Source: a virus (Duplodnaviria; Heunggongvirae; Uroviricota; Caudoviricetes). From it: a stretch of DNA of 64,000 nt. The stretch lies in IMG/VR virus record IMGVR_UViG_3300042563_002362, one strand, 5' to 3'. The first letter of the stretch is position 1, and each line of letters opens with the position of its first letter. This document shows positions 21,244 to 51,432 of the stretch, piece by piece. The notes beneath the pieces are model-generated. The model searched no databases, was not told the DNA's origin, and worked only from the letters and a program-made list of their open reading frames with translations. Position numbers and translations under genes: made by a program.

Positions 21244-21636
21244 ATGACTCCAGTATACATTAACATCGGCAAATATGGCGACAAGCATTACTACAAGGAC
21301 AAAGCAATGACGATACATCATCGTGAAGACGGTCCTGCGGTTGAATACCCCGATGGAGATAAATCTTGGTACATCAATGGAAAACTTCATCGTGAAGATG
21401 GTCCTGCGGTTGAATATGCCGATGGAGGTAAAGCTTGGTTCATCGATGGAAAACGCCATCGTGAAGACGGTCCTGCAATTGAATTTGCCAATGGACGTAA
21501 AGCTTGGTACATCGATGGAGTTTCACTAAGTGAACGAGAATTCCTCAAGCGAACTGCTCCAGAAATCGTCTTGACGATGGACGAGATTGCATCTAAGTTT
21601 GGGATTGAAGTGAGCAAGTTGAAGATCACTAAGTAA
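21244..21636 (+). CDS. MORN-variant repeat protein, array member A (3 repeats)
   Basis: The N-terminus is MTPVYINIGKYGDKHYYKDKAMTIHHREDGPAVE. It has 23-aa repeats of the form W(Y/F)xNGKxHREDGPAxExxxGxK and a conserved C-terminal tail EFLKRTAPEIVLTMDEIASKFGIEVSKLKITK. Confidence 0.6.
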   Translation: MTPVYINIGKYGDKHYYKDKAMTIHHREDGPAVEYPDGDKSWYINGKLHREDGPAVEYADGGKAWFIDGKRHREDGPAIEFANGRKAWYIDGVSLSEREFLKRTAPEIVLTMDEIASKFGIEVSKLKITK

Positions 21637-21673
21637 GTAAGTAAGGAACACGAAACGAACACTAAAACACATT

Positions 21674-22204
21674 ATGACTCCAGTATACATTATCATCAAC
21701 GAATACAGAAGTAAGCATTACTACAAGGACAAAGCAATGACGATACATCATCGTGAAGACGGTCCTGCAATTGAACATGCCAATGGAGGTAAAGTTTGGT
21801 ACGTCAATGGAAAACTTCATCGTGAAGATGGTCCTGCTATTGAATATGCCGATGGAGGTAAAGAATGGTACTCTAATGGAAAACGCCATCGTGAAGACGG
21901 TCCTGCGGCTGAATACGCTAATGTAGGTAAATTTTGGTACGTCGATGGAAAACTTCATCGTGAAGACGGTCCTGCAATTGAATTTGCCGGTGGACATAAA
22001 GAATGGTACGTCGATGGAAAACTTCATCGTGAAGACGGTCCTGCGGTTGAATATGCCGATGGGAGTAAATTTTGGTATCTCGATGGAGTGGAACACGATG
22101 AACAAGAATTCCTCAAGCGAACTGCTCCAGAAATCGTCTTGACGATGGACGAAATTGCTGCTAAGTTTGGTATCGAAGTTAGCAAGCTAAAGATCACTAA
22201 GTAA
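21674..22204 (+). CDS. MORN-variant repeat protein, array member B (5 repeats)
   Basis: Same architecture, 176 aa. Confidence 0.6.
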   Translation: MTPVYIIINEYRSKHYYKDKAMTIHHREDGPAIEHANGGKVWYVNGKLHREDGPAIEYADGGKEWYSNGKRHREDGPAAEYANVGKFWYVDGKLHREDGPAIEFAGGHKEWYVDGKLHREDGPAVEYADGSKFWYLDGVEHDEQEFLKRTAPEIVLTMDEIAAKFGIEVSKLKITK

Positions 22205-22227
22205 GTAAGGAACCCAAAACGAACATT

Positions 22228-22758
22228 ATGACTCCAGTATACATTATCATCAACGAATACGGAAACAAGTATTACTACAAGGACCAAGCAATGACGATAC
22301 GCCATCGTGAAGATGGTCCTGCGGTTGAACTTGCCGGTGGAGATAAATCTTGGTTCATCGATGGAAAACTTCATCGTGAAGACGGTCCTGCGGTTGAATA
22401 CCCCGATGGACATAAAGCTTGGTACGTCAATGGAAAACGCCATCGTGAAGATGGTCCTGCAATTGAACATTCCGATGGATGTAAAGAATGGTTCATCGAT
22501 GGAAAACTTCATCGTGAAGATGGTCCTGCAATTGAATATGCCAGTGGAGGTAAATCTTGGTTCGTCAATGGAAAACGCCATCGTGAAGATGGTCCTGCAG
22601 TTGAACTTGCCGGTGGACATAAAGAATGGTACGTCGATGGAGTTTCACTAAGTGAACAAGAATTCCTCAAGCGAACTGCTAAAGAAATCGTCTTGACAAT
22701 GGACGAGATTGCATCTAAGTTTGGGATTGAAGTGAGCAAGCTAAAGATCACTAAGTAA
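22228..22758 (+). CDS. MORN-variant repeat protein, array member C (5 repeats)
   Basis: Same architecture, 176 aa. Confidence 0.6.
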   Translation: MTPVYIIINEYGNKYYYKDQAMTIRHREDGPAVELAGGDKSWFIDGKLHREDGPAVEYPDGHKAWYVNGKRHREDGPAIEHSDGCKEWFIDGKLHREDGPAIEYASGGKSWFVNGKRHREDGPAVELAGGHKEWYVDGVSLSEQEFLKRTAKEIVLTMDEIASKFGIEVSKLKITK

Positions 22759-22788
22759 GGAACCCAAAACGAACACGAAACGAACATT

Positions 22789-23250
22789 ATGACTCCAGTA
22801 TACATTATCATCGGCAAATACGGAAACAAGCATTACTACAAGGACAAAGCAATGACGATACTTCATCGTGAAGATGGTCCTGCGGCTGAACATGCCAATG
22901 GATGTAAAGAATGGTACTCTAATGGAAAACATCATCGTGAAGACGGTCCTGCGGTTGAATATGCCAATGGACATAAAGCTTGGTTCATCGATGGAAAACT
23001 TCATCGTGAAGATGGTCCTGCAGTTGAACTTGCCGGTGGACATAAAGAATGGTACGTCAATGGAAAACGCCATCGTGAAGACGGTCCTGCGGTTGAATAT
23101 GCCGATGGACATAAAGCTTGGTTCATCGATGGAGTTTCACTAAGTGAACAAGAATTCCTTCTTAAAACCGCTAAAGAAATCGTCTTGACGATGGACGAGA
23201 TTGCATCTAAGTTTGGGATTGAAGTGAGCAAGCTGAAGATCCAGAAGTAA
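22789..23250 (+). CDS. MORN-variant repeat protein, array member D (4 repeats)
   Basis: Same architecture, 153 aa. Confidence 0.6.
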   Translation: MTPVYIIIGKYGNKHYYKDKAMTILHREDGPAAEHANGCKEWYSNGKHHREDGPAVEYANGHKAWFIDGKLHREDGPAVELAGGHKEWYVNGKRHREDGPAVEYADGHKAWFIDGVSLSEQEFLLKTAKEIVLTMDEIASKFGIEVSKLKIQK

Positions 23251-23290
23251 CGAACACGAAACGAACACGAAACGAACACTAAAACACATT

Positions 23291-23821
23291 ATGACTCCAG
23301 TATACATTAACATCGGCAAATATGGCGACAAGCATTACTACAAGGACAAAGCAATGACGATACGCCATCGTGAAGACGGTCCTGCTATTGAACTTGCCGA
23401 TGGAGGTAAATCTTGGTTCGTCAATGGAAAACGCCATCGTGAAGACGGTCCTGCGGCTGAAGATGCCGATGGACATAAAGAATGGTTCATCGATGGAAAA
23501 CATCATCGTGAAGACGGTCCTGCAATTGAATATGCCGGTGGAGGTAAAGCTTGGTACTCCAATGGAAAACTTCATCGTGAAGACGGTCCTGCAATTGAAT
23601 ATGCCGATGGGAGTAAATTTTGGTTCGTCAATGGAAAACTTCATCGTGAAGACGGTCCTGCAGTTGAACATTCCGATGGAGGTAAAGAATGGTACGTCAA
23701 TGGAGTGGAACACGGTGAACGAGAATTCCTCAAGCGAACTGCTAAAGAAATCGTCTTGACGATGGACGAGATTGCATCTAAGTTTGGCATTGAAGTGAGC
23801 AAGCTAAAGATCACTAAGTAA
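23291..23821 (+). CDS. MORN-variant repeat protein, array member E (5 repeats)
   Basis: Same architecture, 176 aa. Confidence 0.6.
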   Translation: MTPVYINIGKYGDKHYYKDKAMTIRHREDGPAIELADGGKSWFVNGKRHREDGPAAEDADGHKEWFIDGKHHREDGPAIEYAGGGKAWYSNGKLHREDGPAIEYADGSKFWFVNGKLHREDGPAVEHSDGGKEWYVNGVEHGEREFLKRTAKEIVLTMDEIASKFGIEVSKLKITK

Positions 23822-23855
23822 GTAAGGAACCCAAAACGAACACGAAACGAACATT

Positions 23856-24179
23856 ATGACTCCAGTATACATTATCATCAACGAATACGGAAACAAGCAT
23901 TACTACAAGGACAAAGCAATGACGATACGCCATCGTGAAGACGGTCCTGCGGTTGAACTTGCCGATGGGAGTAAAGCTTGGTACTCTAATGGAAAACGCC
24001 ATCGTGAAGATGGTCCTGCGGTTGAATACCCCGATGGACATAAAGTTTGGTATCTCGACGGAGTGAAACACGGTGAACAAGAATTCCTTCTTAAAACCGC
24101 TAAAGAAATCGTCTTGACGATGGACGAGATTGCATCTAAGTTTGGGATTGAAGTGAGCAAGCTCAAGATCCAGAAGTAA
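23856..24179 (+). CDS. MORN-variant repeat protein, array member F (2 repeats)
   Basis: Same architecture, 107 aa. Confidence 0.6.
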   Translation: MTPVYIIINEYGNKHYYKDKAMTIRHREDGPAVELADGSKAWYSNGKRHREDGPAVEYPDGHKVWYLDGVKHGEQEFLLKTAKEIVLTMDEIASKFGIEVSKLKIQK

Positions 24180-24208
24180 CGAACCCGAAACAAACACTAA
24201 AACACATT

Positions 24209-24670
24209 ATGACTCCAGTATACATTATCATCGGCAAATACGGAAACAAGCATTACTACAAGGACAAAGCAATGACGATACTTCATCGTGAAGATGGTCC
24301 TGCAGTTGAACTTGCCGGTGGACATAAAGAATGGTACGTCAATGGAAAACGCCATCGTGAAGACGGTCCTGCGGTTGAATATGCCGATGGAGGTAAAGCT
24401 TGGTTCATCGATGGAAAACGCCATCGTGAAGACGGTCCTGCGGTTGAACTTGCCAGTGGAGGTAAAGAATGGTACGTCAATGGAAAACGCCATCGTGAAG
24501 ACGGTCCTGCGGTTGAACTTGCCGATGGATGTAAAGCTTGGTTCATCGATGGAGTTTCACTAAGTGAACAAGAATTCCTTCTTAAAACCGCTAAAGAAAT
24601 CGTCTTGACGATGGACGAAATTGCATCTAAGTTTGGGATTGATGTAAGCAAGCTAAAGATCTCTAAGTAA
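24209..24670 (+). CDS. MORN-variant repeat protein, array member G (4 repeats)
   Basis: Same architecture, 153 aa. Confidence 0.6.
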   Translation: MTPVYIIIGKYGNKHYYKDKAMTILHREDGPAVELAGGHKEWYVNGKRHREDGPAVEYADGGKAWFIDGKRHREDGPAVELASGGKEWYVNGKRHREDGPAVELADGCKAWFIDGVSLSEQEFLLKTAKEIVLTMDEIASKFGIDVSKLKISK

Positions 24671-26643: not shown

Positions 26644-26960
26644 TGAAAATCAAATTCACAAGCGTCGATGTTACTCCGCAGCCGTCATTGCCCAAAAGAA
26701 AGTGGCTTGAGTATCGCGTGAACGGTGTTACGATTGGATGTGCAATGACATTCATGTGTAACGGACGTTTCAATGCAGGTCGCCTTGGCCGAACATTTGA
26801 TTGGAATCATACAGGTCTCGAGAAACTTCTGGGAACCGAAAAGTACAATGCAAACCGTGATCGTTTCATATCTCCACGCGCAGACTTGGTTTATGGGACT
26901 GGTGCCACAATTCCTCTGAAGCGTGTAAAGGAAATCTTTACCGCTGTCGCAACTGCTTAA
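26643..26960 (+). CDS. hypothetical protein
   Basis: 105-aa ORF with an ATGA overlap. Confidence 0.4.
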   Translation: MKIKFTSVDVTPQPSLPKRKWLEYRVNGVTIGCAMTFMCNGRFNAGRLGRTFDWNHTGLEKLLGTEKYNANRDRFISPRADLVYGTGATIPLKRVKEIFTAVATA

Positions 26961-26964
26961 TAAG

Positions 26965-27270
26965 ATGAAAGTTTTTCTCGATGACGAAAGAGTCACTCCG
27001 CAAGGATGGTTCCGAACATACAATCCCGACGACACGATTGATTTGCTGCACGCTGGTCTGGTGACTGAGCTTAGCCTCGATCATGACCTTGGTGATGACG
27101 ACGAAATCGGAACTGGATATGACGTGGTTCTTTGGATTGAGGAAGCCGTTGCTTTGCGAGGCTTTGTTCCTCCAATCATTCACGTTCACTCCGCAAACTC
27201 TTCGGCCGCCGCAAAGATGCGTGCTGGAATCGAAACAATCCAAAGACTACACAATGCACTCTCCGTATAA
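26965..27270 (+). CDS. small receiver(REC)-like domain protein, RtcB-associated
   Basis: It begins MKVFLDDERVTPQGW and has an acidic loop LSLDHDLGDDDEIGTGYDVVLWIEE. It is 101 aa and lies just upstream of rtcB. It resembles the receiver-like modules I recall as being linked to RtcB operons, but I cannot verify this. Confidence 0.3.
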   Translation: MKVFLDDERVTPQGWFRTYNPDDTIDLLHAGLVTELSLDHDLGDDDEIGTGYDVVLWIEEAVALRGFVPPIIHVHSANSSAAAKMRAGIETIQRLHNALSV

Positions 27271-27439
27271 TCATAACAAAAGAATCTGTGAAAAGCGTAG
27301 TCGCGCATTTTCTAATGCAATGCGTCATCCAGTGCGCTCACGTAAATGGAATAAGTGGATGAATCGGTGGGTTAAACTTGCGACTCAACTCGTCGACTCG
27401 AAACTATCTGAACTCTCGTAAATCTTTAAATAATCCATA

Positions 27440-28675
27440 GTGATATTGCCTGTGGAAATTATTTATAAAAATGACAATCTTATGAAACTATTAGGTTCAA
27501 ACAACAATATTCCGGTTTTCGGCGATCCTCTCCAGAATGCCGTTGATCAGATGTCGAACTGTCTCGTCAAGGGTGGCTACAAGGCTGCACTTATGGCTGA
27601 CCATCACCTTGGTTATGCTGTTCCTGTCGGCGGCGTAATTGCTTACAAGGACAAGATCTCGCCTTCAGGTGTAGGCTTCGACATCGGCTGCGGAAACAAG
27701 GCTGTGATGACTGACCTGCACTATGGAGATATCGCGGGTGATATGAACCGTATCATGGACGAAGTGTTTGATCGCATCTCGTTTGGAATCGGCCGCAAGA
27801 ACAAGACTGATGTTGACCATGCGTTGTTTGACAACGATGCTTGGACTGACATCGCTATGCTCGGCGAGCTGAAGGACATGGCGCGCGGACAGCTTGGTAC
27901 TGTCGGCAGCGGTAACCACTATGTCGATATCTTCTATGATCAAAAGGGTCGCGTTTGGATCGGAGTTCACTTTGGTTCACGTGGTCTTGGTCACAAGATT
28001 GCTTCGCATTACATCAAGGCCGGCGGCGGTGTTGACGGTATTAACGTCGATCCTGCTATCTTGGATGTGAATACTGACCTTGGTCGCGAATACATCGCTG
28101 CTATGAACCTCGCTGGTGAATATGCGTATGCTGGTCGCGATTGGGTCTGTGAAGAAGTTGCTCGTATCCTTGGTGCGTCTATCCTTGACAGCGTTCACAA
28201 CCACCATAACTTCGCTTGGAATGAAACTCATGACGGTGAAGACCTTTGGGTTGTTCGCAAGGGTGCTACTCCTGCTTTCCCAGGTCAACGTGGTTTTGTC
28301 GGTGGAACTATGGGTGAAAACTCAGTGATCCTCGAAGGCGTCGCGTCGGACCTTTCTTCCTCTACTCTGTATTCAACTGTTCACGGTGCAGGCCGAGTCA
28401 TGTCGCGCACCGAAGCTGCTGGTAAGTCCAAGTGGAAGGGTGGAAAGAAGATCAAGATTTCGGAAGGCAAGGTCTCGCAGGCCATGATGGACGAATGGGT
28501 TAACAAGGCTGGCGTTGTTCTTCGCGGCGCAGGCGTCGATGAATCTCCACATGCTTACAAGCGTTTGGCTGATGTCCTTGAAGCTCAGGGCGACACTGTT
28601 CGTATTCTCGACGTTCTTACTCCAATCGGAGTTGCGATGGCAGGTGCTGATGTATTTGATCCTTACGCCGATTGA
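27440..28675 (+). CDS. rtcB: RtcB-family RNA 3'-phosphate/2',3'-cyclic phosphate ligase
   Basis: 411 aa (or 397 aa from the ATG at 27482). It has GFDIGCGN, GSGNHYVDIF and HNHHNFAW blocks, with length typical of RtcB. Confidence 0.65.
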   Translation: MILPVEIIYKNDNLMKLLGSNNNIPVFGDPLQNAVDQMSNCLVKGGYKAALMADHHLGYAVPVGGVIAYKDKISPSGVGFDIGCGNKAVMTDLHYGDIAGDMNRIMDEVFDRISFGIGRKNKTDVDHALFDNDAWTDIAMLGELKDMARGQLGTVGSGNHYVDIFYDQKGRVWIGVHFGSRGLGHKIASHYIKAGGGVDGINVDPAILDVNTDLGREYIAAMNLAGEYAYAGRDWVCEEVARILGASILDSVHNHHNFAWNETHDGEDLWVVRKGATPAFPGQRGFVGGTMGENSVILEGVASDLSSSTLYSTVHGAGRVMSRTEAAGKSKWKGGKKIKISEGKVSQAMMDEWVNKAGVVLRGAGVDESPHAYKRLADVLEAQGDTVRILDVLTPIGVAMAGADVFDPYAD

Positions 28676-29502
28676 ATGATACGTTTCCAATCAGATTCTT
28701 CACCATCTTTGATTCTGAAGAATCTGCATTGTAATTCTTCAATTATTCTATCCTGACGCAGCTTATCTTTAAGTTTTTGATCTGGTCTTTCGTGATAAGC
28801 TTCATCAAACTCAATTACCACATTTTCAACCGGTTCATAATAATCAAGAAGATATCCAGCAACTCTAAATTCACCAACATTTTCAGCATGAACTCCGTTC
28901 CATCCAAGCTCTGAATTTATTTCCTCAAATAATCGACAAGCCTTTGCATTATAATTTGGACATGTCCAGCCTAAAGGATACTTTGAATCAATATCTCGTA
29001 AACGTCCATCTCTCTGTTTTTCTTTAGTCTCTGGTGTATGAATTTTTCCAGTAAATCCAGGCTTTCTCCCTTTAAGACTTTGAGATTTACGTTTTCTAGT
29101 TTCAGGACTTTCAGTAATGCCTAATCGTGACTTGTTGTATTCTTTTCCTTTATTTGCTTTACTGATTTTCTCTTTGGTTTCTTTAGTATGTGTTCGACTA
29201 AAAGCATGACTTCGATCAGTACACTTATAACACGTGGTTGCCTTTAATGCTCGATAGTAACATCCAATTCCAGTATGAATGACAATTTCGCCGCATTGAC
29301 ACGTTCTAGTGTATTCTGTTAATTGAGCTAGTGGATCTTTATCATATGTTCTTTCAACTGCACATGAATCTCTTATTTCTTTGTCCATTAAAAACTTTAC
29401 ATTGTGTTTCTTCTTATACTCATTTGGAGAAAGACCGCAGCAATACTTAAGATGTAAATAACCAATACTTTTTAATTCTCTTTGACACTCTAAGCAAATC
29501 AT
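28663..29502 (-). CDS. free-standing homing-endonuclease-like protein (Cys-rich HNH/Zn-finger plus NUMOD3-like basic repeats)
   Basis: It has N-terminal CLECQ...HLKYCCG and CQCGE...CYKC clusters. The C-terminal region has repeated ETKEK/ETRKRKS/GRKPGF motifs. It is on the opposite strand and overlaps the rtcB 3' end by 13 nt. Confidence 0.4.
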   Translation of the reverse strand: MICLECQRELKSIGYLHLKYCCGLSPNEYKKKHNVKFLMDKEIRDSCAVERTYDKDPLAQLTEYTRTCQCGEIVIHTGIGCYYRALKATTCYKCTDRSHAFSRTHTKETKEKISKANKGKEYNKSRLGITESPETRKRKSQSLKGRKPGFTGKIHTPETKEKQRDGRLRDIDSKYPLGWTCPNYNAKACRLFEEINSELGWNGVHAENVGEFRVAGYLLDYYEPVENVVIEFDEAYHERPDQKLKDKLRQDRIIEELQCRFFRIKDGEESDWKRIIQSA

Positions 29503-30536: not shown

Positions 30537-31363
30537 TGAAACCGCAATGGATCATAGAAAACTTCACAAAGGAAGAATCGTTTCTTGACCTTGAAAAAGA
30601 AGTCAGAGCCCAGGGCTATGACGTTCAAACTATCAAAGGTGACTTTCTTAAAGCTGATCTGGCTGATTATCGCGACACATGCGTAATCTTTAATGGCAGC
30701 ATTGAGATGTGCAAGATTGCAAAAGAAGTACTCAGCGCTCAAGGATGCAGTCCAATCATCTATTGTGATTGGGAAAAGTATCTGTGCACCTCTTACTATC
30801 CGCATTTCTCAGAGCACGTCTTCAATGACAACTATGTCTTAGTGCCGATGATTGAGTTTCAGCGTAGGCTGTATCAATTCTATGGCATCTTTGGTAAGCA
30901 AGAGCTGATCTTTGTTCGACCAAACAACGGAGACAAAACCTTTAAAGCTGAACTGCTTGACATTCAAGATGCACCGAAGTTCTTTGAAGAATTAGACCAA
31001 TACAAACATGACTTGGTCCTGCTAAGTACTCCAAAGAACATTGTCGGAGAATGGCGTTTTGTATGTACGGCCGAAAAGGAAATCCTAGCAGTATCAAGCT
31101 ATCGCTATCAAGGAGTACTTACGCGTATTCCGTCTGCTCCACTTGGCGCCACCGAAAAATGTAAAGAGCTTCTTGAGATCGGATATTACCCTGACAGCGT
31201 TTTTTGCATTGATATTGTGCAGGACTCTGACGGAAACTTCTGGATGATGGAACTCACCTCTTTTTCAAGCGCAGGTCTTTACTCCACTAGGAAAGAAAAC
31301 ATTGTCCGCCGCGTTTCTGAAATTGCTATGAAAGATTATGAAAAAAGTAATTTACAAAGCTGA
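30536..31363 (+). CDS. ATP-grasp-fold protein (putative ligase)
   Basis: The track ORF is 30449..31363 and the Met at 30536 abuts the upstream stop. The blocks IFVRPNNGDKTFKAELL, EWRFVCTAEKEILAVSS and FCIDIVQDSDGNFWMMELTS match ATP-grasp core strands (RimK/GshB-like). Confidence 0.4.
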   Translation: MKPQWIIENFTKEESFLDLEKEVRAQGYDVQTIKGDFLKADLADYRDTCVIFNGSIEMCKIAKEVLSAQGCSPIIYCDWEKYLCTSYYPHFSEHVFNDNYVLVPMIEFQRRLYQFYGIFGKQELIFVRPNNGDKTFKAELLDIQDAPKFFEELDQYKHDLVLLSTPKNIVGEWRFVCTAEKEILAVSSYRYQGVLTRIPSAPLGATEKCKELLEIGYYPDSVFCIDIVQDSDGNFWMMELTSFSSAGLYSTRKENIVRRVSEIAMKDYEKSNLQS

Positions 31364-31400
31364 CCAAACCGTTTATAATAATCTCACAACAAACAACAAC

Positions 31401-32672
31401 ATGATTAAGAAAACACTACTACTGCTTGCGGTATTTGCCGGTTCCACTCTTGCATTCAATGCTTTTGACGGATCGGGCGCTTCAACATTGGTCGCAAATA
31501 AACTTGCGCTCGATACTGTGAATGGCGGAAACGCTGAGTTCATTGCTCAATATTCATATGGACATCTGCTATCTCTGAATGTATGGGCCGTTATGACTAC
31601 ACTTCTAACTGCATTGGTGATGTGGTCTCGTTCGGTAAACAAGGTCTCGGCTGCTGCTATGCTGCTTGCAGGTTTCTCGTTCCTGTCGCTGCCATCGTGT
31701 AAGCCGTATCAAAAGCCTATCTATAAGGAAATCAAAAGCAATGAAACTGCGTTTGTGATTCCCCTTGAAGGTGACACTGCATCGCAGGTAAAGTTCGACT
31801 CCAAGGCTGCACTTGAAAAGCACAAGGTTGGCACAAAGCGAATTGAGATTCCGACGCGATGGAGTCAAACTGGTCGAGGTATGGGTTCCGGTGAATGGAT
31901 TCCAACTGTGAATATCATCATTGTTGATCGTAGTCCAATTACTCGAAATTGGTCCGCAGGTGATCGAGGAACGTCTAAGGAAGATCAGGCTATCTGGGTT
32001 GAATCATCGGACAGTGTCGGATTCTCTATGGGCTTTAACTGTACCGCTTTCATTAAAGAAGAAGATACTGCACAGTTCCTCTATTGGTACAGCAGCGGTA
32101 GCCTTGCATCCGTAATGGATAGTGAAATTCGAGGACGCGTCCAGCGTGTCGCTGCTGAAGAAAGCGCCAAGCTTCCGTTGGATGATCTACGTGATAAGAA
32201 GAATGAAATCGCGGCTGCAATCCAAAAGGATGTTATCCCATTCTTCTCTGAACGTGGAATCACGGTCACTACGGTTGGTATGTTTGGCGGTATGACTTAT
32301 GAAAATCCAGAGATTCAGAAGTCAATTGACAATGTCTTTGTTGCACAACAGCAGAAGAATGTTGCACTCGCAAAATATGATGCGCAAAAGAAGGAGAACG
32401 AACGCGTGATTCTTGAAGCACAAGGTGTCGCCGAACAAAAGACTATCACTGCTGAAGCTGATGCTAAGCAGCGTCAAATCCAAGCTGATGCCGAAGCACA
32501 TGCCATCGCTACGCTTACAAAGTCAATTGCTGATGGTGGAACTAACTACCTTAACTACAAGCAAATGGAAATCAATCTTAAGCAGGCTGAACGCTGGGAT
32601 GGTTCGCTGCCAAAGATCACTGGTGGATCTGTTGTTCCAATGCTTAACGCTGAAACATTCCTTAATAAGTAA
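31401..32672 (+). CDS. SPFH/band-7-like membrane protein
   Basis: It has a signal/TM N-terminus MIKKTLLLLAVFAGSTLA. The C-terminus has an AEQK/AEADAKQRQIQADAEAHA coiled-coil typical of HflK/C-stomatin. Confidence 0.4.
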   Translation: MIKKTLLLLAVFAGSTLAFNAFDGSGASTLVANKLALDTVNGGNAEFIAQYSYGHLLSLNVWAVMTTLLTALVMWSRSVNKVSAAAMLLAGFSFLSLPSCKPYQKPIYKEIKSNETAFVIPLEGDTASQVKFDSKAALEKHKVGTKRIEIPTRWSQTGRGMGSGEWIPTVNIIIVDRSPITRNWSAGDRGTSKEDQAIWVESSDSVGFSMGFNCTAFIKEEDTAQFLYWYSSGSLASVMDSEIRGRVQRVAAEESAKLPLDDLRDKKNEIAAAIQKDVIPFFSERGITVTTVGMFGGMTYENPEIQKSIDNVFVAQQQKNVALAKYDAQKKENERVILEAQGVAEQKTITAEADAKQRQIQADAEAHAIATLTKSIADGGTNYLNYKQMEINLKQAERWDGSLPKITGGSVVPMLNAETFLNK

Positions 32673-32677
32673 TACAC

Positions 32678-32947
32678 ATGGCTGCAGAAATTGTAACTAC
32701 ATATTACCTAGCTGGAATTATCAATCGTCCAATCGGTGGATCTGATGATGAACTAACGTCGAAATACACTAAGATTCCAAACACTCCTGACTTCACCACA
32801 CAAGCTGCGGCCGAGACGTTTCGAGACGATGTAATTTTGGCGAACGATGAAAACAAGAAATTCTATCGTTGTGCTAGTGTTGGAGGCGCATTTAGTCCAA
32901 ATCACATTAAGGTAATCACGCAAACCCGAACAGTAATTCTAGCATGA
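32678..32947 (+). CDS. hypothetical protein
   Basis: 89-aa ORF. Confidence 0.35.
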   Translation: MAAEIVTTYYLAGIINRPIGGSDDELTSKYTKIPNTPDFTTQAAAETFRDDVILANDENKKFYRCASVGGAFSPNHIKVITQTRTVILA

Positions 32948-33414
32948 AAATAGTCAAAGGCGATCTTGTCAAAGCAATCCGTGAAGGCGCAGATGGAGGA
33001 CCGCAGGTTATGCTGCATGTCTGCAATAACAAAGGTGTCATGGGCAGCGGTATCGCGCTGCAAGTGAAGAATCAAATTCCTGACGCATATCGTGCATATA
33101 AGGACTTTGAGGCTGCAGTTGGTGGTATCCCATTGGGTACAATCAGTACTTGCCACAACGTGATTAACCTTCATGCGCAGAACGGATATGGACAAGGTTT
33201 TCGCCATCTTGACTATGAAGAATTGTACAAGTCGCTTGAGAAGGCAGCAGCATATCTTGAGCGTTCGGGTGTCGAGCGCGTCGGAGTTCCATACCGCATG
33301 GGCTCCGATCGCGCAGGCGGCGATTGGCGAATCGTAAGTGCAATGCTTGAAACAGTCTTTACATACGGCAACAATCCACACATCACTCTATACGTTTATG
33401 AACTTGAAAACTAA
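32944..33414 (+). CDS. TARG1/OARD1-DarG-like macrodomain (ADP-ribosyl hydrolase)
   Basis: HVCNNKGVMGSGIALQVK aligns with TARG1 CxxxDxxMGAGIA. YRMGSDRAGGDWRIVSAMLETVF aligns with TARG1 [23 protein letters not shown]. Confidence 0.5.
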   Translation: MKIVKGDLVKAIREGADGGPQVMLHVCNNKGVMGSGIALQVKNQIPDAYRAYKDFEAAVGGIPLGTISTCHNVINLHAQNGYGQGFRHLDYEELYKSLEKAAAYLERSGVERVGVPYRMGSDRAGGDWRIVSAMLETVFTYGNNPHITLYVYELEN

Positions 33415-33604
33415 ATTGATTCGTATGCCTTGGCGTCGACCTAGTGATCTACATGCAAGCGGTTATGTGTCTGGAATCCTTTATAGGAAATGCTACCCTC
33501 ATGAAAATGTGGATAAAATCATAGCTGATTTTCAAAAGCTTGCAATTAGTGAAGGTCACAATAGAGAAATCTTAGATATTGAAGTTTATGAACTTGAAAA
33601 CTAA
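33397..33604 (+). CDS. small protein (69 aa) bounded by 21-bp direct repeats
   Basis: It reads MNLKTKLIRMPWRRPSD...DIEVYELEN. It starts and ends inside identical copies of GTTTATGAACTTGAAAACTAA. Confidence 0.3.
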
Positions 33605-34064
33605 TCCTGAATTTCTTCGGCTTGAAGCTGAAATGGAAAAGATCCAAAAGCAACTGCTTGAAGCAATTTGCGCTGATGAAAAGCTGTCAAAGTTGGATCG
33701 TTTGATGCTGATCGAAAACTATAAGCTGTTTGAGACGCATTCATGGATACAACATCCGTTGCGCGAAAAGTACATGGAACAACTGAAAGAAGCTGCAATC
33801 CGTGAAGGTGCAACATACTTCATTGATGACGATTGGCCATTCCTTGAAACCGATTATCGTAATCGCGGTGAATACATCTCGCTTCCAAACGAACTGCTAT
33901 GCGCAGCCGAAAACATTGATGATGAAGACTATGCTGACGGGTTTACGGTTCTTAGAGATCGAGGAACAGGCGTTGAGATTAAGATCAGTTATGAACAGCT
34001 TGAAAGCGATGTTTATGATTGGTGCTTAAAGAACAAGAAGATTGGATTTAACTTTGATTGGTAA
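33579..34064 (+). CDS. hypothetical protein
   Basis: 161-aa ORF. Confidence 0.4.
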   Translation: MKFMNLKTNPEFLRLEAEMEKIQKQLLEAICADEKLSKLDRLMLIENYKLFETHSWIQHPLREKYMEQLKEAAIREGATYFIDDDWPFLETDYRNRGEYISLPNELLCAAENIDDEDYADGFTVLRDRGTGVEIKISYEQLESDVYDWCLKNKKIGFNFDW

Positions 34065-34066
34065 TT

Positions 34067-34432
34067 ATGAAGCGGTATAGTTATGTAACTGATTGTGGAG
34101 TAGTTGAAGATCCAAATGGTGACTATGTTAAGTATGCCGATTATGAAGCTCTTTCAAAGTATGCTGACAGCCTGGTTGAGTTTTCGAAGATACCATGTCT
34201 TCCAGCTGATCTTAAAAACCTGCGTGAAGCTAATGGTCATTTCGCGCAAGAGAACAGTATCTTACAGGGTAGGATTCGTGAACTTGAAGCAGAAATTCGG
34301 TCGCTGAAAGCATCTCAAAAGATTAATGAAAATGAAATTGTCGGCTGGAAAAACAAGTGGGACGCAGCAGTAACAATTGCTGCAATCGCAGAAAATAAAG
34401 TCGACGCAATTAAACGACAAATCTTTCAATAA
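34067..34432 (+). CDS. coiled-coil protein
   Basis: 122 aa. The C-terminal half is a heptad-rich coiled coil. Confidence 0.4.
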   Translation: MKRYSYVTDCGVVEDPNGDYVKYADYEALSKYADSLVEFSKIPCLPADLKNLREANGHFAQENSILQGRIRELEAEIRSLKASQKINENEIVGWKNKWDAAVTIAAIAENKVDAIKRQIFQ

Positions 34433-35043
34433 TGAGTAACACACAAACACAATATGACGGCTATAAGTACTGTTTCATTGACACCGAAACAACTGGTACC
34501 GATCGTCTAAGGAATCATATCTTTCAAATCAGCGGTCGTATCACGACTCCTGACCTTGAGGAACTAGAATCATTTAACTTAGTCTTCAGACCATACAGTC
34601 TTGAGCATGTTGAACAAGGCGCGCTTGAAAAGACGCGTATGACTGTCGAAGATTTGGCTTCATTCCCAATGTCTAGTTCGCAGGCTTACGCCGAATTTTC
34701 CGAAATCCTAGGAAGGCATGTTCAGAAGTTCAACAAGAAGGATAAGATGCACTTCGTTGCATACAATGCTGGATTTGATGTTGACTTTACGCGACAGTGG
34801 TTTACCGTAAATGGAGACTCATATTTCGGTAGCTGGTTCTGGAACCCGCCGATTTGTTGCATGCAAGCTGCCGCATGGCTGACACAACGTGTTCGAGGTG
34901 CTCTCCCGGACTTCAAACTGGGAACTGTCTGCCGAGCCGCAGAATTAGGATGGAATGAAGACTCTGCTCATAATGCCGATTATGACATTGAGAAAACGGT
35001 GCAGCTTTTCCGCTATTTGACGGAATATGCTCCGAAAATTTGA
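34432..35043 (+). CDS. DnaQ-like 3'-5' exonuclease (DEDDh)
   Basis: ExoI is CFIDTETTG and ExoIII is HNADYD (HxAxxD). Confidence 0.6.
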   Translation: MSNTQTQYDGYKYCFIDTETTGTDRLRNHIFQISGRITTPDLEELESFNLVFRPYSLEHVEQGALEKTRMTVEDLASFPMSSSQAYAEFSEILGRHVQKFNKKDKMHFVAYNAGFDVDFTRQWFTVNGDSYFGSWFWNPPICCMQAAAWLTQRVRGALPDFKLGTVCRAAELGWNEDSAHNADYDIEKTVQLFRYLTEYAPKI

Positions 35044-35120
35044 CTGAATACCCGTAACCTATTGAAATTCATAAATTTGCACAAAAGTGGGAACTTTTTT
35101 CACTTTTGTGCATTTTCTTG

Positions 35121-35176
35121 TTTACATTCCGCGAGTTTCCGTTTATAATAATTCTGTAAGGCAACCACTACAAAAT
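35121..35176 (+). promoter_or_regulatory. sigma70-type promoter cassette preceded by palindrome GCACAAAAGTG-N11-CACTTTTGTGC
   Basis: The -35 is at 35121-35126 and the -10 at 35144-35149. The leader is AATTCTGTAAGGCAACCACTACAAAAT, with ATG at 35177. Confidence 0.6.
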
Positions 35177-35458
35177 ATGAATACCACTAAAACTTCCGCT
35201 TTCTCCGCCACCACTCGCGCCGCTGACAAAGAATACATTGTCATTGGAATCAACAGTAAGGAACATTCCGTGTTGGCTCGCACTCCGTATGAAGCCCTTG
35301 GAATCTTCCTCAAGCGCGGCCGCCACGGTCTTGGCACCAATTGGAGACTGACTCGCCAACCAGACGGTTGGATCGTGGCTGTCAATACCACAGGCCGCAA
35401 TCTTGAGCGCAAAATGCACAAACTCCGCGAGAAAAACTACACTCGCGGAATGCGCTAA
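35177..35458 (+). CDS. hypothetical protein (93 aa)
   Basis: The track ORF 35087..35458 includes the promoter. The start is at the leader end. Confidence 0.45.
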   Translation: MNTTKTSAFSATTRAADKEYIVIGINSKEHSVLARTPYEALGIFLKRGRHGLGTNWRLTRQPDGWIVAVNTTGRNLERKMHKLREKNYTRGMR

Positions 35459-35489
35459 TCGGCTCTGAAACTCAACAAGCGTCTCATCT

Positions 35490-35828
35490 ATGAAAAAGAT
35501 TGTTACTAAAGATTCTCTACTGCAACTGCTTGACGGCTCTCCAGAGCGGAAAGCGCAAATCGTAGGTCGGGCGCTTGTTGTTCTTTTCAACCGCCAAGTC
35601 GAAGACGAAAAGACCAGCAACGATACTCGCCACCTCAATATGCGCGGGTTCGCTCCATGCGATGCTTACAGCGGAACTCTTACTGCTAAGTACTACCTTA
35701 AGCACCGCAGACTACTCGATTGGCAACTTGAGCGATGGCTTGCTCCAACGACCAAAGGATACCCGCGTATTGCAAAATACACTCGTCAGCTCAACGAAGC
35801 CGCAAACGAAAAACTTCAAACGGTATGA
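35490..35828 (+). CDS. hypothetical protein
   Basis: 112-aa ORF. Confidence 0.45.
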   Translation: MKKIVTKDSLLQLLDGSPERKAQIVGRALVVLFNRQVEDEKTSNDTRHLNMRGFAPCDAYSGTLTAKYYLKHRRLLDWQLERWLAPTTKGYPRIAKYTRQLNEAANEKLQTV

Positions 35829-36019
35829 ATACACCAACAAACCACCATTCGTTGCGTCTATTGGATTTGGCGATTCGTTGGAACACTCAAGCTGAAATCT
35901 ACGATGAGGAAGGCAATGCTGACTGCGGGACGGGATCGGACGTCCCTTACGCGATGGCTTCAATGCTACGCGAACACGCCGCCGAGATTGAAAAGCTGGC
36001 ATACATGTCTAAAGAATAA
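35825..36019 (+). CDS. hypothetical protein (64 aa)
   Basis: Internal Met of track ORF 35735..36019, with an ATGA overlap to the upstream gene. Confidence 0.35.
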   Translation: MNTPTNHHSLRLLDLAIRWNTQAEIYDEEGNADCGTGSDVPYAMASMLREHAAEIEKLAYMSKE

Positions 36020-36024: not shown

Positions 36025-36651
36025 ATGAAACCACTTCGCTACAAATATCCTCGCACATTCCATCTTCCATGGAGCGAAGGCTGCACATCAGACGATAAGA
36101 AGCTGGCAGGCAGCGATCACTTCATTGGTCAGCAGGTTGTGATCACCGAAAAGATGGACGGTGAGAATACGACAATCTATCATGACCATGTTCACGCTCG
36201 TTCGATTGACAGTTCGCATCATTGGTCGCGCTCACGCGTCAAAGAACTGCAGTCTCGCTTGTATGATCTGCCTGAAGATCTGCGAATCTGCGGTGAAAAC
36301 CTTTATGCCAAGCATAGCATCAAGTACGATAACCTTGTGGATTACTTCCAGGTCTTCAGTATTTGGAGCCACGAACAATGCCTCTCTTGGAAGGATACTG
36401 TTGAGTGGGCTGAGATTCTTGGGCTGAAGACTGTTCCTGTTCTCTATAGCGGAGTCTATAGCTATCCGATCATCAAGGAGATTCAAAATAAAATGGACTT
36501 CTCACGCAGTGAAGGTTATGTAATTCGCCTAGCCGATTCATTCCGCATGAAGGACTTCTCGAAGAGCGTCGCTAAGTATGTCCGTACTAATCATGTCCAA
36601 ACCGACGAGCATTGGATGACTGCTGAACCTGAAACAAATACCTTAGTATGA
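36025..36651 (+). CDS. small KxDG nucleotidyltransferase, RNA-ligase-like (Rnl2-type NTase domain only)
   Basis: YPRTFHLPWS is followed by ITEKMDGENTTIY (motif I KxDG near residue 43). 208 aa. Confidence 0.4.
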   Translation: MKPLRYKYPRTFHLPWSEGCTSDDKKLAGSDHFIGQQVVITEKMDGENTTIYHDHVHARSIDSSHHWSRSRVKELQSRLYDLPEDLRICGENLYAKHSIKYDNLVDYFQVFSIWSHEQCLSWKDTVEWAEILGLKTVPVLYSGVYSYPIIKEIQNKMDFSRSEGYVIRLADSFRMKDFSKSVAKYVRTNHVQTDEHWMTAEPETNTLV

Positions 36652-46269: not shown

Positions 46270-47211
46270 ATGTCGTTTGATAAACTGAAACAAAATCGTG
46301 CAGCCGCAATCTCAAAACTCGTGAATGCTGCTGAAAAGACAGGCGGAACTAAAACCTATGGCGATGATCGTCTGTGGGCACCAACCGTCGATAAGACTGG
46401 TAACGGGTATGCTATTATCCGTTTCCTCCCTGCTAAGGAAGGTGAAGATCTTCCATGGGTTCGCTATTGGGATCATGGATTCAAGGGACCAACTGGTCGT
46501 TGGTACATTGAGAACAGCTTGACCAGCATCGGTCAGACTGACCCAGTTTCTGAACTCAACTCTGTTCTTTGGAACAGCGGTAATGAAAAAGACAAGGAAG
46601 TTGCACGCGATCGTAAGCGTCGTCTGCATTACGTTTCTAACATCCTGGTTGTTAGCGATCCTGCTAATCCAGCAAATGAAGGAAAGGTATTTATCTTCAA
46701 ATATGGTAAGAAGATCTTTGACAAGATCAATGATCTGATGCAACCGCAATTCCAGGACGAGACGCCGGTCAATCCGTTCGACTTCTGGGGTGGCGCAAGC
46801 TTCCGCTTGAAGATTCGCAACTTCGAAGGATATCGTAACTATGATAAGAGCGAGTTTGATAAACCAACCGAACTCTTTGGCGGTGACGATGCACGTCTTG
46901 AGGAAATCTATGGCCAGCTCCATAGCCTATCCGACTTCGTCGATCCGAAGAGCTACAAGTCCTACACTGAACTCAAGAAGAAGCTCATCGAGGTTCTTGG
47001 CGAAGAAGCAGTTAATGGATCAGCCTCAACTGCACATACTGCAGTTGCTGAAGTTAATGTTGGTCGTGCCGTTGAAGCACAAGCAGCACCAGCAGCTGGT
47101 AGCTCATATGACGATGTCAATGATGACATTCCATTCACGTCTGACGGCGGTACATCATCCGAAGGAGACGATGATGACATCAGCTACTTTGCTAAGCTTG
47201 CACGTGGTTAA
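46270..47211 (+). CDS. gp32-like single-stranded DNA-binding protein
   Basis: 313 aa. NGYAIIRFLP parallels T4 gp32 NGQAVIRFLP, and the core is Zn/Cys-His containing. The C-terminal tail is acidic: DDDDISYFAKLARG. Confidence 0.65.
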   Translation: MSFDKLKQNRAAAISKLVNAAEKTGGTKTYGDDRLWAPTVDKTGNGYAIIRFLPAKEGEDLPWVRYWDHGFKGPTGRWYIENSLTSIGQTDPVSELNSVLWNSGNEKDKEVARDRKRRLHYVSNILVVSDPANPANEGKVFIFKYGKKIFDKINDLMQPQFQDETPVNPFDFWGGASFRLKIRNFEGYRNYDKSEFDKPTELFGGDDARLEEIYGQLHSLSDFVDPKSYKSYTELKKKLIEVLGEEAVNGSASTAHTAVAEVNVGRAVEAQAAPAAGSSYDDVNDDIPFTSDGGTSSEGDDDDISYFAKLARG

Positions 47212-47223
47212 TACCGCATCTGC

Positions 47224-49374: not shown

Positions 49375-49562
49375 ATATTAAAGGTGGTTTTGTTTGTTAT
49401 TTCGTTCTTGGTTTTCTTTCTTAATTTGGTCAGCTAATAACGAAATGTAAATTTCTCTCTCCCATGGTAGCATATCTTCAATTTCTGATATGCTATACTT
49501 ATGATGATACATAAGTGCAAAGTTAGTCTTGTACAGATTAACCAATGACTCATGGGAGAGAC

Positions 49563-50270
49563 TTATGAGAAAAAAGATCTTATGCCGCTAAGAGACTGTT
49601 CATTTTCACATGAACATTTGCTGCATTTGAATTTGATTGTATGTTCAACCTTTGGAAGGTTAGTGATGAATGCCTCAATCTTTTGCATCTGTAAACGCGC
49701 TAGAGAATTAACAAAGGTCTCCATATCAGATCGACTGTAACTTGTTTTTGGATAAACTTTGTTTTCATCATAGATGCTATCAATACATGCAATAACAGAT
49801 TCAGTCATTTGATCAGCAGTTGACATGTCCTTCTTAGATGCAATTTTACTCATGTCCTTGACACTCATCGGTTTCATGTTTACTCCAACAGTATCGGTAA
49901 GTTGAACGCGACCATCTGGAGCTGAACCCATAACTTTGATTTCATCAAGATTAATGTCAATCTCGTTTTGAGAATCACATTCTGTACATTTAAGTCCAAC
50001 CGTTGAAATTTCACCAACACTCTTTGAGCGTAACTTAATGAAAAGGTATTCAAGATCATACGATGTAAGATTATCAACATCGACTTTATTGTATGTACAC
50101 GCACGAATGACATCTTTAATGGCATTCATAATTTGCCCTTGGTCTTGACTTTCTTGAGCAATAAGCAATACCTTTTCTTCTTTAACTAAGAATGGGCGAT
50201 ATTCGGCGGCTGTACCAGTTGAAGGAATTTCAATGGTGTACTTAGGAGATGCAATAATTGGTAAACTCAT
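49563..50270 (-). CDS. tail/baseplate module protein with two CxxC zinc-ribbon pairs
   Basis: 235 aa with LKCTECDSQ and FKCSKCSC. Confidence 0.4.
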   Translation of the reverse strand: MSLPIIASPKYTIEIPSTGTAAEYRPFLVKEEKVLLIAQESQDQGQIMNAIKDVIRACTYNKVDVDNLTSYDLEYLFIKLRSKSVGEISTVGLKCTECDSQNEIDINLDEIKVMGSAPDGRVQLTDTVGVNMKPMSVKDMSKIASKKDMSTADQMTESVIACIDSIYDENKVYPKTSYSRSDMETFVNSLARLQMQKIEAFITNLPKVEHTIKFKCSKCSCENEQSLSGIRSFFS

Positions 50271-50285
50271 AAATCTATATATTCA

Positions 50286-50837: not shown

Positions 50838-50838
50838 A

Positions 50839-51426: not shown

Positions 51427-51432
51427 ATCTGC

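Follow-up and report, generated by a model that had tools for sequence, protein, structure and literature searches.

Only lately have phage macrodomains been tied to set roles. AdfM (anti-DarT factor Macrodomain) counters DarTG2, and Adpp counters aRES together with NARP1. Homology labels such as "phosphatase", "DarG-like" and "O-acetyl-ADP-ribose deacetylase" do not tell which defence a phage copy defeats. This report concerns a macrodomain gene in a 64-kb stretch of DNA (64,000 nucleotides, called here the window) from an uncultured T4-like phage (IMG/VR record IMGVR_UViG_3300042563_002362), and asks which defence its product may act against. The gene is real and of a kind that phages already use against ADP-ribose- and NAD-based defences, not a new kind, and the discovery is an incremental one. 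Both roles go back to a Gln-type radiation, a very large one (~19,000 representatives at 50% identity), and for substrate-specificity mapping a divergent, NARP1-less member with a DR loop, carried by an uncultured T4-like phage, makes a reasonable test case.

Gene, fold and class

The interval that the initial annotation assigned to a macrodomain is an exact ATG-to-TAA ORF on the + strand (Table 1), and the T4-like genes of the window, including gp32, the gp33 late coactivator, gp5, gp6, gp25 and T4_baseplate, bear out its view that the DNA comes from a phage. Homologues of the ORF fall into 83 clusters (E-values of 1e-95 to 1e-11), 18,945 representatives (50% identity) match at E<=1e-3, and the matches for the ORF and its motifs are far beyond chance. 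Purifying selection acts on the ORF, with a dN/dS of ~0.10 against two relatives. On the other strand, an ORF of slightly greater length is a shadow ORF. Megablast of positions 31000-36000 against 50,697 phage records yielded no near-identical phage genome.

Table 1. Coordinates in the window of the macrodomain gene, its active-site features and the adjoining ORFs
Feature	Position	Strand	Description
Upstream ORF	32678..32947	+	89 aa; TGA overlaps the macrodomain ATG (ATGA); clade-specific
Shadow ORF opposite the macrodomain ORF	32902..33381	-	159 aa
Macrodomain ORF	32944..33414 (stop included)	+	156 aa, ATG to TAA; stand-alone Gln-type; TARG1/DarG/Poa1p class; PHROG 335
Active-site strand and loop 1	33016..33057	+	H25-V26-C27-N28, then G31-V-M-G-S-G-I-A38; ADP-ribose/distal-ribose binding loop
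Gln79 codon (CAG)	33178..33180	+	Column of the catalytic Lys: TARG1 K84, DarG K80, PhiKZ AdfM K78
Mobile loop, N80-Y91	33181..33216	+	NGYGQGFRHLDY; near-invariant Y82, G83, R87, Y91
Loop 2, diphosphate-binding	33289..33327	+	P116-Y-R-M-G-S-D-R-A-G-G-D-W128; from alignment and column counts
C-terminal helix block	33334..33360	+	VSAMLETVF, residues 131-139; TARG1 counterpart VSAMIEEVF
Downstream ORF	33588..34064 (ATG at 33588)	+	158 aa; clade-restricted ORFan; not DarG-C-terminal-like

The AF2 model of the 156-aa protein has a macrodomain fold (pLDDT 92.7), and the protein belongs to the macro fold of the Pfam PF01661 clan, an alpha/beta/alpha arrangement whose ADP-ribose-binding loop is Gly-rich; its single sequence scores 16.8 bits with Pfam Macro, below the gathering score of 22. 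In structure the protein is matched best by BT1257, DarG, Poa1p and TARG1. PDB matches of the family profile are BT1257 (9e-22), SCO6735 (2.5e-19), MtbDarG (5.6e-17), TaqDarG (1.2e-15), TARG1 (4e-14) and Poa1p (5.5e-13). Comparison with TARG1 and DarG structures had been proposed as a check on the assignment to the TARG1/DarG type and not the MacroD type; these matches and the alignment agree with it, placing the protein in the ALC1-like/TARG1-DarG-Poa1p class, nearest to TARG1, DarG, Poa1p and SCO6735 and not to MacroD, PARG or viral Mac1. Within this class it belongs to the Gln-type subclass (SCO6735/BT1257), with Gln at the Lys column and a His-Val-x-Asn strand. In the alignment the K84/D125 dyad of TARG1 proper is replaced by Gln79 and Ala124, and the protein reads NLHAQNGY where DarG2 carries its catalytic Lys (K80, PTKKHW). 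DarG2 also has a C-terminal DarT-binding domain and an adjoining darT, whereas the present protein is a single 156-aa domain. Its defence-library matches are DarG HMMs only (PADLOC 1.4e-9; NCBIfam 8e-10), and the NCBIfam antitoxin_DarG match (38.5 bits, cutoff 250) covers the macro part alone.

Active-site residues and loops

Both motifs on which the first assignment relied are present, GVMGSGIA at residues 31-38 (33034-33057) and VSAMLETVF in the C-terminal helix block, with its TARG1 counterpart at the same place. In loop 1, with residue roles taken from PMC9411070 and PMC13309987, H25 is kept in 82/84 family sequences and N28 in 83/84, while M33, G34, G36 and A38 are each found in all 84. 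N28 aligns with DarG N22, PhiKZ AdfM N23 and SCO6735 N27, and H25-V26 align with SCO6735 H24-V25. Gln79 is invariant (84/84 family sequences; 150/150 representatives) and aligns with the essential Gln85 of SCO6735, whose Q85A and Q85E variants are inactive (PMC9411070).

The initial annotation had held that a lack of the catalytic Lys and Asp would speak against a macrodomain of this type. Both residues are indeed absent, with Gln79 at the first column and Ala124 at that of TARG1 Asp125, but the argument itself is invalid, because SCO6735, a Gln-type enzyme, still cleaves thymidine-linked ADP-ribose on ssDNA and protects both E. coli and S. coelicolor against DarT (PMC9411070). T4 Tk.4 and the Adpp of Vibrio phage Gary are Gln-type too.

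The mobile loop, a concept taken from PMC9411070, is longer than in DarG, TARG1 and T4 Tk.4 and shorter than in SCO6735 and BT1257, and its R87 is kept in 78/84 sequences. Lys34, Lys89 and Lys94 of SCO6735 serve in DNA positioning; the present protein has S35 at the K34 column and a loop with no Lys, and does not share the SCO6735-type combination of Lys34 and a long Lys89/Lys94 mobile loop. T4 Tk.4 is also without these features, which are therefore not needed for anti-DarTG2 function in vivo, and it likewise has Ser at the K34 column, so S35 is compatible with that function.

Loop 2 carries the signature of a DR-loop subfamily, with a one-residue insertion (Y117) and Asp122-Arg123 where relatives carry Gly-Leu (GCGLAGG). 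D122 is found in 77/84 and R123 in 81/84 sequences, and among the top 150 representatives about half are DR and the remainder GL. Every characterised relative has Gly-Leu there. This subfamily might be a mechanistically distinct branch, with a new specificity or a dual enzyme, although we think this quite unlikely. The loop Asp might then supply the acid/base otherwise missing in Gln-type enzymes, and the loop Arg might bind a 1''-phosphate or a DNA backbone phosphate. A dual enzyme would handle both ADPR-1''-phosphate (aRES) and thymidine-ADP-ribose (DarT2), which would account for the presence of the DR subfamily both in NARP1 operons and outside them.

Phage and gene neighbourhood

The macrodomain gene sits in a co-directional block of non-structural genes, and its neighbours include RtcB, an RNase_T exonuclease, two RNA ligases, a DNA ligase, PolyA_pol, cREC_REC and SLOG/YAcAr. 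The upstream ORF has no PHROG, Pfam or PADLOC match and the related contig L013 has a homologue of 38% identity in the same place. The downstream ORF has no PADLOC match and three homologue clusters only, all restricted to the clade, and in relatives it overlaps the 3' end of the macrodomain gene. A "split DarG", in which a flanking ORF would be the DarT-binding domain, was rejected on this clade restriction and on eight neighbours without a PADLOC match. A conserved partner gene was also rejected, as the neighbourhood is kept within the close T4-like clade only; it is different in Vibrio, Pseudoalteromonas, E. coli and Bacillus phages and in contig L008, and since it varies in more distant relatives it provides no pathway signature. 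No tRNAs were found in the window, and a promoter and terminator scan gave 12 sigma-70-like sites against 12.7 expected from shuffles. Several of the neighbours serve nucleic-acid repair (RtcB, the RNase_T exonuclease, the RNA and DNA ligases), a setting in keeping with an AdfM-like role.

The same block is rich in RNA-repair and ADPr-network genes (RtcB, the RNA ligases, PolyA_pol, cREC_REC, SLOG/YAcAr), which also agrees with action on another ADP-ribose adduct together with the neighbouring RNA-repair genes, a role that we consider unlikely; the adduct would be Glu/Asp-linked protein ADPr, ADPr-RNA (for instance with a CmdT-type modified base or a capped phosphate end), O-acyl-ADP-ribose or an RNA-repair by-product. 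In RNA repair, Appr>p and ADPR-1''P come from Tpt1/KptA, but Pfam found neither Tpt1/KptA nor ART or NADAR domains in the 64-kb window, and RtcB ligation leaves no 2'-phosphate. SCO6735 and TARG1 do also take Glu-linked ADPr off protein (PMC9411070), and a comparative-genomics survey argued that soluble ADPr derivatives are the main targets of phage macro domains (PMC9503650). Against this, SCO6735 is inactive on 5'-phosphate-ADPr RNA/DNA, 2'-OH ADPr RNA and guanine ADPr (PMC11833690), and the RNA-repair neighbourhood does not extend beyond the close T4-like clade.

The initial annotation had further suggested that the protein could erase Alt/Mod-type marks made by the phage itself. This suggestion finds no support, and such an eraser, or a non-catalytic ADP-ribose binder or sponge, is very improbable. 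Alt, ModA and ModB are often encoded by T4-like phages and macrodomains can be readers, but the window holds no ART domain, and Alt and Mod are arginine-specific, forming a linkage that, to our knowledge, TARG1/DarG-class enzymes do not cleave. The invariant or near-invariant H25, N28 and Q79, together with a dN/dS of ~0.1, point to conservation of an active site more than to a mere binder.

NARP1 linkage among relatives

Action against DarTG, as first proposed for this gene, has precedent in T4 Tk.4 and PhiKZ gp104, but the proposal did not weigh the equally precedented role of Adpp. Adpp is an ADPR-1''-phosphate phosphatase inside the NAD+-rebuilding NARP1 operon, and Gary Adpp turns ADPR-1P into ADPR, as detected by LC-MS, and NARP1-AP cannot overcome aRES without it (bioRxiv 10.64898/2026.01.28.702374). 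An Adpp-like protein would dephosphorylate ADP-ribose-1''-phosphate, produced by RES-domain (aRES) cleavage of NAD+, to ADP-ribose, and NAD+ would be rebuilt by a phage pathway elsewhere in the genome or by another route. We regard this, the chief alternative, as possible, though not probable, for the present gene. Like the present protein, Gary Adpp belongs to the Gln-type radiation, and the best cultured-phage matches, from Vibrio phages 184E37.1, RYC and 1.063.O (44-48% identity), are encoded between or beside Adps and Namat and have the DR motif ("DRAGGDW" loop) in common with the present protein. Adps and Namat also lie within 10 kb of the macrodomain gene in 21/80 IMG/VR relatives. These two observations, which favour an Adpp-like role, speak against an AdfM-like one.

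The gene itself is neither within nor next to an Adps and Namat operon, the arrangement of Adpp in NARP1-AP. Pfam and tblastn searches found no Adps or Namat in the window, which is a part of the genome reaching ~30 kb to each side of the macrodomain gene, and tblastn found none within 10 kb of the macrodomain gene in contig L013. In all 21 positive loci these genes lie no more than 8.3 kb away, and for the most part no more than 3 kb. Without NARP1, dephosphorylation of ADPR-1P has no known benefit, the tested Adpp, that of Gary, has a GL-type loop and shares only 26% identity, and T4, also without NARP1, turns its homologue against DarTG2.

In an NJ tree, and again at odds with an AdfM-like role, the clade of the present protein is sister to the 184E37.1/RYC/1.063.O Vibrio proteins with a bootstrap of only 59%, and the backbone bootstraps at the nodes that bear on AdfM versus Adpp are 52-59. 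Similarity was rejected as a means of deciding between the two, as Tk.4 and Gary Adpp are equal at 26% and 40.4 bits each; an identity to Tk.4 of just 26%, the same as to Gary Adpp, counts against an AdfM-like role. Net charge and pI as a proxy for DNA binding were not discriminating (pI of 5.0 for PhiKZ AdfM and 5.9 for T4 Tk.4).

Proposed function

We infer the catalytic activity, expression timing, substrate and targeted defence of the product, and the most likely reading, a tentative one, is that it reverses, like AdfM, the ADP-ribosylation of DNA by DarT2. As the window yielded no NARP1 genes, thymidine-linked ADP-ribose (DarT2) is the most likely substrate. The protein would be a stand-alone, catalytically competent Gln-type hydrolase resembling SCO6735, BT1257 and T4 Tk.4, whose loop 1 (GVMGSGIA) and loop 2 (PYRMGSDRAGGDW) would hold the ADP-ribose moiety between them. 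With no Lys to serve as nucleophile, it would hydrolyse the distal-ribose bond at C1''. The ribose and the transition state would be placed by Gln79; the H25-V26 backbone and N28 would, as in the proposal for SCO6735, place the attacking or activating water. As a counter-defence, it may take off the ADP-ribose that DarT2-type toxins attach to thymidine of phage ssDNA, and phage replication would be restored, as inferred for T4 Tk.4/AdfM.

As in T4, the gene belongs to a T4-like phage and lies away from NARP1, which is in line with an AdfM-like role. The evidence from T4 is genetic only, which weighs on the other side.

Comparison with known systems

PHROG 335 takes in T4 Tk.4, PhiKZ gp104 and Gary Adpp, and the present protein, Tk.4 and gp104 all match it (4.5e-33, 1.3e-65 and 8.2e-43, respectively); like AdfM, the present protein is a stand-alone phage macro protein homologous to Tk.4 or gp104. 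T4 Tk.4/AdfM is the single gene that becomes essential on DarTG2 hosts, according to genetic evidence (bioRxiv 10.1101/2025.11.20.689424), and a literature search on Tk.4 found nothing further. It resembles the present protein in being a stand-alone protein of ~155 aa from a T4-type phage, with Gln at the Lys column, the H-x-C-N and MGSG motifs, Ser at the SCO6735 K34 column and no NARP1 link. Tk.4 has only 26% identity to the present protein, at 40.4 bits. Its alignment with the family runs over the full length (hhalign 99.2%, E 2.5e-19), and it scores 76.6 bits with the family HMM. It differs in its loop 2 (RIGAGIGKGNW versus PYRMGSDRAGGDW), its shorter mobile loop and its neighbours (the vs/tk region in T4).

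PhiKZ gp104/AdfM is a phage macrodomain that neutralises DarTG (PMC13309987). Both gp104 and DarG2 have the fold and class of the present protein, the GVMG-x-GIA loop and the Asn in loop 1, but unlike it they are Lys-type (PTKDNW in gp104, PTKKHW in DarG2). Against the family, gp104 reaches 96.4% with hhalign and only 40 bits on the family HMM, and orthology to it was rejected, as this Lys-type protein has an identity of about 19% and groups with DarG at a bootstrap of 100. The two proteins published as "AdfM" are no orthologues of each other, Tk.4 being Gln-type and gp104 a DarG-derived protein of the Lys type.

Gary Adpp, like the present protein a Gln-type phage macro protein, matches it at 26% identity (40.4 bits, E 1e-9) and has a GCGLAGG (GL-type) loop; the macrodomain genes of Gary, RYC, 1.063.O and 184E37.1 are inside Adps-macro-Namat operons, in contrast to the present gene with no Adps or Namat in its 64 kb. 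SCO6735 (Streptomyces coelicolor; 5E3B) and BT1257 (Bacteroides thetaiotaomicron; 2FG1/2AFC) are chromosomal bacterial proteins with 26-27% identity to it, and have Gly-Leu in loop 2 where it has Asp-Arg and a one-residue insertion; relative to SCO6735, K34 is replaced by Ser and the mobile loop is 2 residues shorter and without K89/K94. TARG1/OARD1 (human) and Poa1p (yeast) are eukaryotic cellular proteins with about 25-28% identity, and the K84/D125 dyad of TARG1 corresponds to Q79 and A124 in the phage protein.

Results

The window is from a T4-like phage encoding gp32, the gp33 late-transcription coactivator, PhoH, ThyX, DNA ligase and a gp5/gp6/gp25/T4_baseplate module. No near-identical phage record was found by megablast; the phage's close relatives, which share its gene order, are contigs from metagenomes. 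The macro gene sits in a co-directional, non-structural block whose order is conserved in the close T4-like clade: cREC_REC, RtcB, (homing endonuclease), a 327-aa ORF, R2K ATP-grasp, a small ORF, macro, a ~155-aa ORF, RNase_T exonuclease, RNA ligase and DNA ligase. The neighbourhoods of more distant relatives differ: Prs/Adps - macro - Nampt/Namat (Vibrio phage 184E37.1), macro - Adps - Namat (Pseudoalteromonas phage PH357), macro - RNA ligase - NADAR (comparison contig L008), a PRPP-synthase-like gene that overlaps the macro gene (E. coli phage Bas61), and unrelated genes (Bacillus phage Izhevsk). A 'split DarG' was rejected because no defence-related similarity was found for the flanking ORFs and the downstream ORF is clade-restricted. 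Features of the region are listed in the table.

Features of the window and of comparison contigs (L005, L006, L009, L013)
Feature	Position	Strand	Description
Macro ORF	32944..33414	+	156 aa, ATG to TAA
Opposite-strand ORF	32902..33381	-	159 aa, shadow ORF
Tandem paralogous ORFs	21244-24670		seven; about 107-176 aa, mutually 76-81% identical; all match Pfam DUF6745 (best E 1.4e-9)
RNA-repair/ADPr-network genes	27440-28675; 36025-36651; ORFs within 1-21000 and 26900-27300		early region
Homing-endonuclease-like gene	28663-29502	-	NUMOD3 motif; directly after RtcB gene, slight overlap; present in L001, absent in L009
SPFH/Band_7-domain protein	31338-32672		444 aa, membrane-anchored; PHROG 200 'lipoprotein'
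Sigma-70-like match	31351-31379		11/12; 5' end of SPFH/Band_7 gene
Insertion	33394-33604		190 bp
Direct repeat copies	33394-33414; 33584-33604		21 bp, perfect
Insert ORF	33398-33604		68 aa
Insert homolog	L009:7010-7198; L013:7294-7482		73% identity
Terminator-like hairpin	35078-35112		strong; 16-bp stem, then T-run
Sigma-70-like match	35121-35149		11/12; immediately after hairpin
TnsA-like endonuclease N-terminal domain	within 47000-64000		PF08722, E 8.6e-17; among T4-type baseplate module proteins
CHAP domain	within 47000-64000		among T4-type baseplate module proteins
T4 tk.4	L006:8923-9390		Gln-type, closest to BT1257
PhiKZ gp104	L005:12518-13006		Lys-type

The early region is unusually dense in RNA-repair and ADPr-network genes (RtcB, two RNA-ligase-family proteins, one of them PHA02142-type, a PolyA_pol/CCA-adding enzyme, the cyclic-phosphate processing receiver cREC_REC, a SLOG/YAcAr protein, HD phosphohydrolases and His_Phos_1), and neither Tpt1 nor NADAR was found alongside them in the window. 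The SPFH/Band_7 gene, between the R2K ATP-grasp gene and an 89-aa ORF, is missing at the equivalent position in related contigs L001-L004 and L009. Directly 3' of the macro gene, the insertion is flanked by the repeat GTTTATGAACTTGAAAACTAA, present as a single copy in L001 and L002 at the site of overlap between the macro 3' end and the next gene's start. The insert ORF takes its start (MNLKT) from the next gene and its end (VYELEN, then stop) from the macro gene; GC content is 37% in the insert versus 48% in the macro gene. The insert's homolog lies one gene further downstream in L009 and L013, and the insert is therefore a shuffled small-gene cassette. Downstream of the macro/RNase_T block, the hairpin and adjoining promoter match may be the boundary of a transcription unit, sigma-70-like sites overall being no more numerous than in shuffled sequence.

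Both motifs on which the initial annotation based a TARG1/DarG-like macrodomain lie in the macro ORF, GVMGSGIA at residues 31-38 and VSAMLETVF at residues 131-139, in the same alignment columns as VSAMIEEVF of human TARG1. The plus-strand product is matched by 83 homolog clusters (E 1e-95 to 1e-11), and dN/dS is 0.096 and 0.106 against two relatives. The shadow ORF exceeds the true gene in length, and a longest-ORF rule chooses the wrong strand at this locus. Alone, the sequence scores 16.8 bits against Pfam Macro (cutoff 22 bits), and it matches PHROG 335 'phosphatase' (4.5e-33) and DarG models from PADLOC (1.4e-9) and from NCBIfam (8e-10), where the score is 38.5 bits for a cutoff of 250 and only the macro part is covered. 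A profile built from 84 family members matched, in the PDB, BT1257 (9e-22), SCO6735 (2.5e-19), DarG of M. tuberculosis (5.6e-17) and T. aquaticus (1.2e-15), TARG1 (4e-14) and Poa1p (5.5e-13). These data show a conserved, selected, stand-alone macrodomain with an intact ADP-ribose pocket, of the Gln-type (Gln in the column of the catalytic Lys).

In the alignment, Gln79 fills the column of TARG1 K84, DarG K80 and PhiKZ AdfM K78, and Ala124 that of TARG1 D125, with a TARG1 sequence checked by its K84/D125 numbering only. Gln79 is invariant (84/84 relatives; 150/150 best 50%-identity representatives), and H25 and N28 are nearly so. Absence of the Lys and Asp, which had been proposed as grounds for refutation, is real but is no evidence against activity, because Gln-type SCO6735 is active and needs its Gln85. 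Gln replaces Lys in SCO6735 and BT1257; SCO6735 mutants Q85A and Q85E are inactive, the proposed catalyst being a water positioned by the backbone of His24-Val25, and SCO6735 clears ssDNA of thymidine-linked ADP-ribose with higher efficiency than either DarG or TARG1 and also shields cells against DarT (PMC9411070). These residues place the query in the Gln-type subclass with the SCO6735/BT1257 arrangement. Unlike SCO6735, it has Ser35 at the position of Lys34, a mobile loop two residues shorter and without Lys (Arg87 is conserved), and a loop 2 (diphosphate-binding) signature P-Y-(R/K)-M-G-(S/C)-D-R-A-G-G-D-W, in which Asp122-Arg123 and a one-residue insertion stand where relatives read G-C-G-L-A-G-G. 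Of the top 150 representatives, roughly half carry this DR loop, the remainder having GL; that the uncharacterised DR-loop subfamily differs in mechanism or has dual specificity seems improbable.

PhiKZ gp104 (AdfM) is a nucleus-imported macro protein that strips DarT2-made ADP-ribose off DNA, N23 and K78 being residues of its active site (PMC13309987). T4 Tk.4 (also AdfM, anti-DarT factor Macrodomain) was the single gene that turned essential on a DarTG2 host, its deletion sensitising T4 (bioRxiv 10.1101/2025.11.20.689424; preprint, genetic evidence only). The macro protein Adpp accompanies Adps and Namat in about 15% of NAD+-rebuilding NARP1 operons, and that of Vibrio phage Gary converts ADPR-1''-phosphate to ADP-ribose, letting NARP1 rebuild NAD+ after aRES attack (bioRxiv 10.64898/2026.01.28.702374). 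All three sequences were retrieved for comparison. Gp104 is Lys-type (FPTKDNW); it groups with DarG (bootstrap 100) and reaches only 40 bits against the query family's HMM. Tk.4 and Gary Adpp are Gln-type, reading NLYTQ and NVYGQ respectively. Scanned against PHROGs, the query, Tk.4 and gp104 match PHROG 335 in all three cases. Two papers have given the name AdfM to non-orthologous proteins, Tk.4 and gp104 having only 21 BLASTP bits in common. The query shares 26% identity (40.4 bits) with Tk.4 and equally 26% (40.4 bits) with Gary Adpp. In a weakly supported distance-based NJ tree (200 bootstraps), the Gln-type proteins of phages fall into a single radiation with poor resolution, in which the query groups with family proteins P0004 and P0012 (bootstrap 100), this clade being sister to NARP1-embedded Vibrio proteins at only 59%, and Tk.4 nests beside another NARP1-associated protein (52%). 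With equal identities and low tree support, sequence cannot assign the query to AdfM or Adpp.

The query's best cultured matches (47-48% identity) come from Vibrio phages RYC and 1.063.O; these NARP1-associated macro proteins, which appear in Table S1 of the aRES paper, have the DR loop. Adps and Namat both lie within 10 kb of the gene, mostly at 0.4-3 kb, in 21/80 IMG/VR loci encoding relatives, sampled by patterns that favour DR-type proteins; some of the 21 encode DR-type proteins with 47% identity to the query. Neither gene was found near the macro gene in the query's own clade (window, L013), and Pfam searches of essentially all window ORFs found no Adps/Namat-type, ART, Tpt1/KptA, NADAR, Nudix or sirtuin domains. 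Within the 64-kb window, the macro ORF is not linked to NARP1.

Discussion

Reversal of DarT2-type DNA ADP-ribosylation is, tentatively, our first-ranked explanation and could well be right: the macro protein would hydrolyse the bond at C1'' in an ADP-ribose adduct presumably made or triggered by host defence. It ranks first because Tk.4, the only tested NARP1-less phage homolog, counters DarTG2, because SCO6735, alone among Gln-type enzymes in having been assayed on DNA, cleaves thymidine-ADP-ribose, and because we know of no use for an ADPR-1''P phosphatase without NARP1. An Adpp-like phosphatase is rather less probable but a serious rival, since NARP1 operons are enriched both for the query's nearest relatives and for the DR-loop signature, and since the window covers only part of the genome. 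Erasure of the phage's own Alt/Mod-type marks, also raised in the initial annotation, is unsupported because the window holds no ART and Alt and Mod modify arginine. Action on other adducts (Glu-ADPr proteins, ADPr-RNA, OAADPr or RNA-repair by-products) is less likely, as Tpt1 is absent from the window and RtcB ligation leaves no 2'-phosphate. SCO6735 also argues against it, as it showed no activity on ADPr at phosphate ends, at 2'-OH or on guanine (PMC11833690).

Compared with known systems, the query is not TARG1 proper (no dyad), DarG (no Lys, C-terminal domain or darT) or part of an Adpp-containing NARP1-AP operon (no Adps or Namat). It falls within PHROG 335 and the Gln-type, ALC1-like subclass and would work like either AdfM or Adpp. 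The concept of a phage macrodomain as counter-defence has been in print since 2025-2026, and the query is a divergent further example.
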